From a virus (taxonomy: Duplodnaviria; Heunggongvirae; Uroviricota; Caudoviricetes), in IMG/VR virus record IMGVR_UViG_2548877009_000012: a DNA stretch of 35,879 bases. One strand, 5' to 3'. Position numbers: made by a program. Positions 18,001 through 21,000 of this stretch are shown here, piece by piece. Within the stretch, counting starts at the first letter, position 1; each line of letters begins with the position of its first letter.

Positions 18001-21000
18001 CCTCGATAACATCCTGAAAGGTTTACTCGACTCTCTTATCTACGCCGGATTTGCGGAAGACGACGAGCAATTCGATGACATTCGCGTAATTCGCGGCGTG
18101 AAAGTGCCTGGCGGTAGAGTGGGGATAAAAATCACCGAACTGGAGAACATTTGATGAATGCTAAAATTCAAACGATACCTGAATTACTGATCTGCACCAG
18201 GGGAAATCAGACAGAAGTCGCCAGAATACTGAACTGCAATCGTGCCACAGTCAGAAAATACATTGATGATAAAGATGCGAAAAAGCACGCCGTCGTCAAT
18301 GGCGTCCTTATGGTTCATCGCGGATGGGGTAAAGATACTGATGCGTGATATCCGGCAGGTTCTTGAGCGCTGGGGTGCATGGGCGGCAAATAACTATGAG
18401 GATGTTACATGGTCGCCCATTGCTGCCGGATTTAAGGGACTGATCCCCGAAAAAGTAAAATCACGTCCACTGTGTTGTGACGATGACGCGATGATTATAT
18501 GCGGGTGTATGGCTCGCCTTAACAGGAACAACAGCGATCTGCATGACTTGCTGGTTGATTATTACGTGTTGGGGGAGACATTCATGGCGCTGGCACGTAA
18601 GCATGGATGCTCTGATGGAACTATCGGTAAAAAATTACAGAAAGCGGAGGGTGTGGTTGAAGGGATGTTAATGTTACTTGGTGTCAGACTGGAAATGGAC
18701 CGATATGTGCAACGCCTCTGACAGGAGGCGTTTGCCGTTCACTATGTGAAGTGTGTCAATTTGTGAGCGTTATGCTGTTTACTTTATAGTACAGGGACGT
18801 AAGAGTTATCTACCTGTTAATAACATATATACAACAATGAACAGGGGGCAAAATGGACATTGAAGATTTTCTGGAGGCGGAAGACAATGATCTGTCTCTG
18901 TGGAATGATGATATTTTAAGCATTGACTGGTTCGTTATCCTCAAAGAGCTTTTGAAATACCAGAACAGGTTAAAGTTAAACTATTCAGAATTACTTCTGC
19001 TGGCTAATTTTGTTTCATTTCACCAGGACGTAGATTCGCAAACATTACCATCAATATCTCTTTTTGCCACCAGAATGCGTACATCCCGGGACGCCATACA
19101 AGGAGTCCTGGTGTGTCTGGAGGAGAAAGATATGTTACAGAAGATAAGTTACGCGCAAATCGATCATGACGATGATTTGCGAAACATCTATGATATCAAG
19201 CCATTAATCCGCCGGTTAATTTGGTTATTGAAAAGTGGTTGTGATAAAAAGCATACTTGCCCCCTCTGCGGGAAAGTCGCTATATCTAATGATGAAATTG
19301 AGAAAAAATTCGGATTCAGAATTTGCGGGAATAAGAAAAGGCCGCAAAGCTGGTGCCGTTCATGCAGAAGCACGAAACAACGCCGACTGAATACATCGCT
19401 AATTGGCAAAAAAAAGCCCCGAAAATCTCCGCCCGAGGTGGTGTGAAGCGTCGCGGAACCCCGGATTCCACTCCCGATTGAACGAGGTGCTAAAAAGTAT
19501 TTTACGTACGTAAAAATCTGCATATCATGATAAGAGTGGTTGCATTGCCACGCAGCCGACCCCGTCGATGAGCGGGGTTTTTTTGTACCCAGAATCCTCT
19601 GAGCTATACGGAAAGTACACAGAAAGGAAGGTGCGGCCACAATTAATAACAAAATCTTAAAAATCGCACATGGCACTATTAGTTTTCTAAATATTGTGTA
19701 TTTTTTGTATTGCAGGATGACCCTGTAACGAAGTTTGCGTAACAGCATTTTGCTCTACGAGTTTGCCAGCCTCCCCCAGTGGCTGGCTTTTTTATGTCCG
19801 TAACATCCTGTGTATCAATAAATGTTGTTGTCTACGTACGTCAAGTAGTCGCATGAGATCTGACCAGATATGTTAAGGTTGCAGCTCTCTTTGAATATGA
19901 TTATCATTTTCATTACGTTATTGTTACGTTTATCCGGTGCGCCGTAAAACGCCGTCCTTCAGGGGGTGGAGGATGTCAAGAATATAGTTATCGTATGGTG
20001 CTCAAGGAGTATTGTGTAATATGAAAATAATTATTTTTAGAGTGCTAACTTTTTTCTTTGTTATCTTTTCAGTTAATGTGGTTGCGAAGGAATTTACCTT
20101 AGACTTCTCGACTGCAAAGACGTATGTAGATTCGCTGAATGTCATTCGTTCTGCAATAGGTACTCCATTACAGACTATTTCATCAGGAGGTACGTCTTTA
20201 CTGATGATTGATAGTGGCACAGGGGATAATTTGTTTGCAGTTGATGTCAGAGGGATAGATCCAGAGGAAGGGCGGTTTAATAATCTACGGCTTATTGTTG
20301 AACGAAATAATTTATATGTGACAGGATTTGTTAACAGGACAAATAATGTTTTTTATCGCTTTGCTGATTTTTCACATGTTACCTTTCCAGGTACAACAGC
20401 GGTTACATTGTCTGGTGACAGTAGCTATACCACGTTACAGCGTGTTGCAGGGATCAGTCGTACGGGGATGCAGATAAATCGCCATTCGTTGACTACTTCT
20501 TATCTGGATTTAATGTCGCATAGTGGAACCTCACTGACGCAGTCTGTGGCAAGAGCGATGTTACGGTTTGTTACTGTGACGGCTGAAGCTTTACGTTTTC
20601 GGCAAATACAGAGGGGATTTCGTACAACACTGGATGATCTCAGTGGGCGTTCTTATGTAATGACTGCTGAAGATGTTGATCTTACATTGAACTGGGGAAG
20701 GTTGAGTAGTGTCCTGCCTGACTATCATGGACAAGACTCTGTTCGTGTAGGAAGAATTTCTTTTGGAAGCATTAATGCAATTCTGGGAAGCGTGGCATTA
20801 ATACTGAATTGTCATCATCATGCATCGCGAGTTGCCAGAATGGCATCTGATGAGTTTCCTTCTATGTGTCCGGCAGATGGAAGAGTCCGTGGGATTACGC
20901 ACAATAAAATATTGTGGGATTCATCCACTCTGGGGGCAATTCTGATGCGCAGAACTATTAGCAGTTGAGGGGGTAAAATGAAAAAAACATTATTAATAGC

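Follow-up and report, generated by a model that had tools for sequence, protein, structure and literature searches.

The stretch of DNA analyzed here, IMG/VR record IMGVR_UViG_2548877009_000012 with a length of 35,879 nt (the window, to whose positions all coordinates refer), is a lambdoid prophage of the 933W/H-19B type carrying the genes of Shiga toxin (Stx) 1. The region of interest extends from the antiterminator gene Q to stx1A and contains an open reading frame of 197 codons, named ORF197, as well as the late promoter pR′ and the late terminator tR′. On the plus strand, the genes rusA (17792-18154) and ninH (18151-18348) precede Q (18341-18721), which is a short allele of 126 amino acids (Q126) matching the Pfam family Phage_antitermQ (PF06530, E = 2.8e-51). 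It is followed by a spacer of 131 nt (18722-18852), by ORF197 (18853-19446, ATG start), whose product combines a winged helix of the DnaD-N type with a Cys4 zinc ribbon and a basic tail, and by a non-coding stretch of 575 nt leading to stx1A (20021-20968) and stx1B (20978-21247), both identified by ORF calling and annotated homologues. The late control unit, consisting of pR′, the leader with a first terminator, the region of the small RNA (sRNA) StxS and tR′, is intact in this arrangement and merely displaced.

The late promoter pR′ was found by a promoter scan at positions 19501-19528 on the plus strand and consists of the −35 element TTTACG, a 16-nt spacer and the −10 element TATCAT. It begins about 55 nt after the stop codon of ORF197, and its transcript is predicted to start at ~19535/19536, which is 7-8 nt past TATCAT. 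The same sequence is annotated as a putative late promoter in Ss-VASD, and the pR′ core together with the first terminator is present 55-70 nt 3′ of the ORF197 stop in every locus bearing the ORF. Over the −35 element lies a perfect palindrome of 16 bp (19500-19515), recognized by sequence reading and alignment, which is possibly a Q-binding element. It reads TTTTACGTACGTAAAA in the window and TTTACGATCGTAAA, which contains a GATC site, in canonical phages. All ORF-bearing loci carry TTTACGTACGTAAA with a GTAC centre at the place where canonical phages have the GATC Dam site. This exchange may mark the right-hand junction of the inserted module, or it may alter Dam sensitivity or the binding of Q.

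A further difference was observed in the initial transcribed region of pR′ (19541-19546), which reads GGTTGCATTGCC in the window and also in the loci L002 and L026, compared with GGTTACATTGCC in canonical phages. Its linkage to the ORF is not strict, as GGTTACATTGCC is also found in some other ORF-bearing alleles. TACATT may be the sigma70 −10-like pause element of this phage-82-type promoter. If this is the case, the A-to-G change affects its most critical base and could weaken the loading of Q.

Downstream of pR′, two tandem terminators were identified on the plus strand. Terminator 1 (19558-19586) is built of a hairpin (19558-19579) and a run of seven thymidines, has a free energy (dG) of −14.5 kcal/mol and covers approximately +23 to +51 in the transcript from pR′. 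Its hairpin is kept by compensatory changes relative to the canonical phages. Terminator 2 (19765-19793) has a stem formed by positions 19765-19771 and 19781-19787 and a run of six thymidines ending at 19793 (dG −14.5 kcal/mol, z −3.4). It was missed by the terminator scan due to its 9-nt loop, but the records AJ279086 and AP005153 list it as a terminator. In the loci L017 and L023 the part comprising StxS and tR′ is absent and tRNA genes directly follow terminator 1, which is the only terminator before them.

The distance from the predicted start of pR′ (19535/6) to the end of the thymidine run of terminator 2 (19793) amounts to 258 nt. For both Stx phages of the Sakai strain, the same length between the primary pR′ start and the 3′ end of tR′ was determined by differential RNA sequencing (dRNA-seq) and Term-seq (Sy et al., 2020; PMC7547250), whose absolute coordinates are ~135 off the RefSeq version, so that the length, together with the 95% identity, carries the comparison. 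A stretch of 312 nt (19489-19800) is ~95% identical to the sequence directly after Q in ~290 Stx phage records and ~700 genomes (megablast). Based on the spacing and this identity, terminator 2 is tR′, and the segment 19536-19793 on the plus strand, the leader between pR′ and tR′, is the homologue of StxS_L. The last 74 nt of this leader (~19720-19793) correspond to the processed sRNA StxS, and a sequence homologous to the StxS of Sakai is thus located between pR′ and tR′ and ends at an intrinsic terminator. In Rfam, no family covers the StxS region. A promoter annotated in AP005153 (window ~19663-19694) was rejected as the main start, since the 5′ end of the 74-nt RNA is a processing product (PMC7547250). 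Terminator 1 looks like a full intrinsic terminator, yet the 258-nt Sakai transcript passes that hairpin (PMC7547250).

A reading of the window from the sequence alone, made before this analysis and called the sequence-only reading in the following, had described two strong terminators after the ORF, followed by a Fur box and stx1A. Both terminators exist with the dG values given above, but they are not terminators of ORF197 itself, as they are situated in the pR′ leader and pR′ lies between the ORF and terminator 1. The Fur box of the stx1 promoter is located as described, at 19893-19911 on the plus strand ahead of stx1A, and agrees with the generally known Fur consensus at 15 of 19 positions. 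An iron-regulated stx1 promoter with a Fur box was reportedly described by Calderwood and Mekalanos in 1987. Altogether, we are highly confident of the anatomy of the region as it is read here.

In canonical phages Q has 144 amino acids and overlaps with its last codons the −35 element of pR′, the stop codon being situated inside the −35 palindrome. The Q126 protein shares 111 of its first 120 residues with this usual Stx phage Q, whereas the last 24 amino acids are replaced by QRL and a stop codon. The window contains a Q of the expected family as well as the conserved pR′ core, initial transcribed region and tR′ of a lambdoid late unit, but pR′ neither overlaps Q nor follows it directly, as its −35 element at 19501 is positioned 780 nt beyond the Q stop at 18721. 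With the late region of the 933W, H-19B and phage 82 type, the window shares the PF06530-type Q, the pR′ core, the hairpin at +23 to +51, StxS, tR′ and the 258-nt spacing. It differs in a Q that ends 24 codons early, in 780 bp including a gene before pR′, in GTAC instead of GATC at the palindrome centre, and in TGCATT instead of TACATT at the candidate pause element.

The inserted module has a size of ~0.8-0.9 kb (window ~18615-19500) and comprises the variant 3′ end of Q, a hairpin, the 130-nt spacer and the 197-aa gene. Its left part is the 3′ third of Q, which diverges from the canonical Q from ~18615 on and occurs only together with ORF197. The stretch inserted between Q and pR′ amounts to roughly 780-870 bp, and from 19489 on pR′, leader and tR′ resume. 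These junctions were located by aligning the window with canonical Stx1 phages and with phage 7888. One of two alternatives offered by the sequence-only reading, an insertion separating Q from its promoter, is thereby borne out, as Q runs straight into pR′ in the ~290 Stx phage records and the module stands between them here.

Apart from 18 of 5426 complete E. coli genomes, only the Shigella phages POCJ13 (98.4% identity), 75/02 Stx and 7888 (88.7-88.8%) contain the entire stretch, according to a megablast search with positions 18722-19800. The 3′ third of Q with the spacer (18600-18860) was found in 19 of these 5426 genomes and was adjoined by ORF197 each time. The exact GTAC variant of pR′ occurs in 11 IMG/VR contigs, all with ORF197 just upstream, and Q126 was seen in nine of the 11 stretches. 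This joint occurrence shows that Q126, ORF197 and the −35 region of pR′ in its GTAC variant move as a set. Depending on the locus, the module precedes stx1a, nanS-p without a toxin gene, or tRNA genes and a gene of the TerB family, and is thus not tied to stx. We regard the arrangement as a rare and conserved form of a familiar control region and not as a new control system.

The same gene occurs at the same place as ORF1 of the Shigella sonnei phage 7888 (AJ279086) and as hypothetical genes of POCJ13 and 75/02 Stx, with the DNA identities of the region given above. It has been present in databases from phage 7888 onward and is annotated only as hypothetical, so that it is not a known conserved late-region gene of defined function, and neither a functional statement nor a discussion of the gene was found in the literature searched, whose scope did not include the 2001 paper on phage 7888.

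ORF197 is not part of the constitutive transcript from pR′ to tR′, as it is located upstream of pR′. Most likely, it would close the N-antiterminated (delayed-early) operon of pR and be transcribed together with Q after induction. Between the two genes, a stable hairpin spans the Q stop codon (18707-18736, plus strand; dG −16.8 kcal/mol, z −3.5). Its pairing is maintained through compensatory changes in other alleles (CGCCTC/GAGGCG to CGCCTG/CAGGCG) and is followed by a run of six thymidines in L023. This hairpin may be a weak terminator, which N-modified polymerase would ignore, or an RNA-stabilizing stem. A promoter-like site of uncertain status (TTGTGA-18-TATAGT, 9 of 12 positions matching) is present in the spacer on the plus strand (18761-18790), and its −10 element is lost in the alleles L022, L023 and L024. 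Across the region, eight promoter-like matches were counted compared with 3.7 ± 1.7 in shuffled sequences. Expression of ORF197 in the lysogen is possible and would depend on such an unproven weak promoter of its own. From the ORF197 stop to pR′, neither RNA structure (z +0.9) nor a dedicated terminator was detected, and the next terminator is the hairpin of the pR′ leader. Read-through transcripts would therefore end at terminator 1 or tR′.

In the proposed course of events, Q126 made from the early operon would still act on the displaced pR′. For POC-J13, RecA-dependent induction of Stx1a by mitomycin and a rise of plaque-forming units (PFU) of about 1000-fold have been described (PMC4193171). 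Since the region of this phage is 98.4% identical to that of the window, Q126 and the displaced pR′ appear to work together, and it is shown indirectly that the control of pR′ by Q would still be functional. The expectation of the sequence-only reading that either arrangement would affect the Q-dependent toxin expression has found no support so far, as POC-J13 is inducible with the same arrangement.

To judge from its conservation, ORF197 is a real and evidently functional gene. Four diverged alleles show not a single indel over 197 codons, and their pairwise ratios of nonsynonymous to synonymous substitution rates (dN/dS) are 0.17-0.29 at a dS of 0.4-0.6. No region with dN/dS >1 was found in this comparison, which indicates purifying selection throughout. 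In windows of 15 codons, the corresponding ratio of proportions (pN/pS) does not exceed about 0.6, with the peak at the predicted recognition helix (amino acids 76-95). The G-rich Shine-Dalgarno sequence is kept or improved (to GGAGG) in all alleles. The GC content over ORF197 is 0.37-0.41 compared with 0.47-0.51 in the nin/Q region upstream. The family is tiny, with 16 clusters among 5.8 billion, all of them from E. coli or Shigella and with at least 76% identity. Two damaged copies were found, one in L024 (E. coli 06-00048, 3253-3845), which is frameshifted into two coding sequences (CDSs), and one in cluster P0012, a truncated copy in which the second CxxC is lost via a frameshift. ORF197 is therefore dispensable in some hosts.

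Divergence among the ORF197 alleles is much higher than in the sequences flanking them. Between the window and phage 7888, for instance, the 3′ end of Q and the first 90 nt of the spacer show no difference, whereas the dS of the ORF is 0.46. Based on this, the alleles appear to have been exchanged by recombination within the conserved flanks.

The N-terminal half of the ORF197 protein (amino acids ~25-127) matches the Pfam family DnaD_N (PF21984) with 33 bits at a gathering threshold of 27 and is predicted to adopt the winged-helix fold of the DnaD N-terminal domain. A profile of the ORF197 family matches the solved DnaD N-domain with E = 8e-17. In DnaD, this domain mediates dimer and tetramer formation. 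The zinc ribbon follows at amino acids ~134-172, and its cysteines C136, C139, C168 and C171 show no or almost no variation among 12 family members and in the distant relatives. The protein ends with a basic tail. The Pfam match, the conserved cysteines and the GC content agree with the AT-rich ORF with winged-helix-like N-terminus and C-terminal Cys4 motif noted by the sequence-only reading. Besides DnaD_N, only weak, sub-threshold zinc-finger matches were obtained in Pfam, and for the zinc ribbon no curated Pfam model above threshold and no solved structure was found by sequence. The C-terminal DnaD/DnaB_2 domain is absent according to Pfam, as the C-terminal half is the Cys4 ribbon, and a full-length DnaD replication initiation protein is thereby ruled out. 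Compared with DnaD itself (PF21984; PDB 2vn2, 8ojj), ORF197 thus has a Cys4 ribbon and a basic tail in place of the C-terminal domain.

The structure of ORF197 was predicted with a mean confidence (predicted local distance difference test, pLDDT) of 72 from an alignment of 78 sequences, and with 59.6 by AlphaFold2 (AF2) from the 12 close homologues only. No matches were obtained in NCBIfam 20.0 (0 families at E ≤ 1), among the defence families of PADLOC-DB 2.0 (0 at E ≤ 1) and in a BFVD fold search (nothing at E < 1e-3). PHROG 34160, to which no known function is attached, aligns over the full length of the protein, and weak PHROG matches comprise a DnaD-like helicase loader and replication initiators.

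A profile search in 1.84 billion representatives yielded 376 matches at E ≤ 1e-3, of which only a handful have both domains. The closest of these, P0017, is 39% identical and located on small ColE1-type mobilizable plasmids. Further two-domain relatives (P0021/P0166, P0027 and P0031) are about 25-28% identical to ORF197, and P0027 and P0031 are 38% identical to each other. The genes of P0166, P0027 and P0031 each immediately precede a chaperone-usher fimbrial operon in the same orientation and each stand beside a divergent NlpC/P60 gene, with one of the loci on an IncFII-type plasmid. Another two-domain relative, from Pseudocitrobacter, is found together with AbiEii-like and YafO-like genes on a contig of 7 kb. 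Scanning 185,579 species genomes for the conserved motifs yielded only one additional full-length relative. The remaining matches are single-domain proteins, either N-domain proteins of 120-150 amino acids, one of which is encoded on a plasmid with its own separate Rep3 initiator, or zinc-ribbon mini-proteins of 50-90 amino acids.

The zinc-ribbon motif CPxCG...FGFR...QSWCxxCR is widespread (examples are the proteins P0018, P0020, P0025, P0060 and P0070). It occurs alone, in tandem with up to 34 repeats in a protein of 3179 amino acids, and at the C-terminus of ResIII/DEAD helicases of superfamily 2 (SF2); it is also fused to a protein resembling a PD-(D/E)xK nuclease, as judged by eye. Neither for mini-proteins consisting of the ribbon nor for a nuclease-like fusion did the gene neighbourhood give a hint, owing to the shortness of the contigs. 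Owing to this occurrence alone, in tandem and in fusions, the ribbon is best seen as a portable module that presumably binds nucleic acids. The ORF197 protein thus defines a small, uncharacterized two-domain family and draws attention to a widespread zinc-ribbon module to which no curated model of Pfam or NCBIfam matched above threshold.

From this domain content, ORF197 would be a two-domain nucleic-acid-binding protein, in which a DnaD-N-type winged helix is combined with a Cys4 zinc ribbon of the mobile kind, to which a basic tail is added. As a whole, the region is best explained by an intact, displaced late unit with ORF197 as an accessory DNA-binding regulator, and we lean slightly toward this combined explanation. 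Its functional part, according to which ORF197 would be a moron-like accessory gene encoding a DNA-binding transcription regulator, is more tentative and is proposed because of the domains and the distant relatives heading fimbrial operons. These relatives, at three loci, occupy the same position as the PapB/PapI-type regulators that head chaperone-usher fimbrial operons. The synteny is conserved at low identity. No other hint of function comes from gene position, and this one points to a transcription regulator acting locally.

Several points weigh against a regulator. Protein-protein contacts are a better established role of the DnaD N-domain than sequence-specific DNA binding, and the confidence of the predicted structure (pLDDT 72) is only moderate. 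No operator-like repeat co-varying with the ORF197 alleles was found, as the nearby non-coding sequence contains only short repeats at chance level. The predicted recognition helix is the most variable part (pN/pS ~0.6), which fits a changing specificity as well as an unused helix. Finally, the association with fimbrial operons may represent one conserved locus type and not independent events.

Among the alternatives, a gene for lysogenic conversion or conflict with a promoter of its own that is active in the prophage survives best, although we consider it unlikely. Such a gene could act in superinfection exclusion or anti-defence or regulate host genes, e.g., for adhesins. Like phage morons, ORF197 has a lower GC content than its flanks, separates elements that adjoin each other in most relatives, and is found only in a minority of related phages. 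A promoter-like site upstream, the diverged alleles within conserved flanks, the occasional inactivation (L024, P0012) and the relatives beside toxin-antitoxin and Abi-like genes on small plasmids point in the same direction. However, there is no PADLOC match, the −10 element of the putative promoter is not conserved, and purifying selection acts throughout without any region of dN/dS >1. Unlike a typical moron, ORF197 has an unproven promoter and no dedicated terminator, and in contrast to stx and most lambdoid morons, which lie in the late operon, it is located upstream of pR′.

Somewhat less probable still is a replication or recombination accessory, whose N-domain would contact DnaA or the helicase loader and whose zinc ribbon would bind DNA, so that phage or host replication is modulated after induction. 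The best sequence and fold matches are to the DnaD N-terminal domain, the weak PHROG matches belong to replication proteins, and the gene is located at the end of the nin region, the home of recombination functions. This is opposed by the absence of the DnaD C-terminal DNA-binding domain and by the lack of a replication context for the relatives at fimbrial operons, and the plasmid encoding an N-domain-only relative has its own Rep3 initiator. Likewise, to our knowledge, E. coli has no pathway of DnaD-dependent initiation, which also counts against this role. The window itself encodes a replication module that is not of the lambda O/P type, with a 360-aa protein (10215-11297) without Pfam match followed by a DnaC/IstB-like ATPase (11304-12044), and no similarity to this replication protein was detected, a kinship being rejected at an hhalign probability of 0.2%.

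A decaying remnant without function, for which the frameshifted and the truncated copy and the very small family could be cited, is highly improbable in view of dN/dS values of 0.17-0.29 at a dS of ~0.5 without indels in four alleles, the conserved cysteines and Shine-Dalgarno sequence, and the two-domain architecture retained at 25-40% identity in other genera. It is equally improbable that the site at 18761-18790 acts as another late promoter responsive to Q and makes ORF197 the first late gene or part of a constitutive leader, although its 9 of 12 sigma-70 match is found 40 nt past Q at the place expected for pR′, since the local alignment of the post-Q spacer with pR′ scores 14 compared with 14.8 ± 2.1 in shuffled sequences, the −35 palindrome TTTACGNNCGTAAA of pR′ occurs only once in the window and hence no second pR′ is present, the −10 element is lost in three alleles, and Q126 is identical at 111 of 120 positions to a Q that works with the canonical pR′, which is retained in every case. 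The other alternative of the sequence-only reading, a late promoter upstream of the ORF and constitutive transcription of the latter in the manner of the 6S/StxS leader, was therefore abandoned; in addition, the 258-nt spacing fits the downstream promoter.

In addition, some features of the window outside these main subjects were observed. An antisense ORF of 186 amino acids (19188-19748, minus strand) overlaps the 3′ end of ORF197, pR′ and StxS. A part of it corresponds to the hypothetical ORF b69 in AP005153, and it is most likely spurious. Rfam matches above the gathering score were obtained for STnc100 (21326-21539) just 3′ of stx1B, isrK (14969-15045), C4 antisense RNA (15071-15154) and sRNA-Xcc1 (16053-16142). 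The 5′ part of a nanS-p-like esterase gene contains a 199-bp tandem duplication (21977-22358; two 183-nt copies with 92% identity), which splits the gene into the ORFs 21752-22234 and 22119-23891.

The unit of Q, pR′ and tR′ decides on the amount of Shiga toxin released by a lysogen and also produces the sRNA StxS. The variant described here indicates that a gene-sized insertion separating Q from its promoter is compatible with this unit, that the common Q can do without its last 24 residues, and that the promoter acts as a block of its own from about −45 to +50. ORF197 is carried by Stx1 phages of emerging toxigenic Shigella (POC-J13, 75/02 and 7888) and by a small set of E. coli strains that produce Shiga toxin (STEC), and therefore any effect on toxin or phage output would be epidemiologically relevant. 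As a more speculative idea, to which we assign little probability, ORF197 and its relatives could form an unrecognized family of mobile-element regulators composed of winged helix and zinc ribbon, each controlling the operon immediately downstream. If this were true, the target in the phage would be pR′, StxS and stx1 together with the late genes. This would add an extra layer of control over Stx1 and StxS in the phages that brought stx1 into Shigella flexneri and S. sonnei, or it would link induction to the expression of host adhesins.

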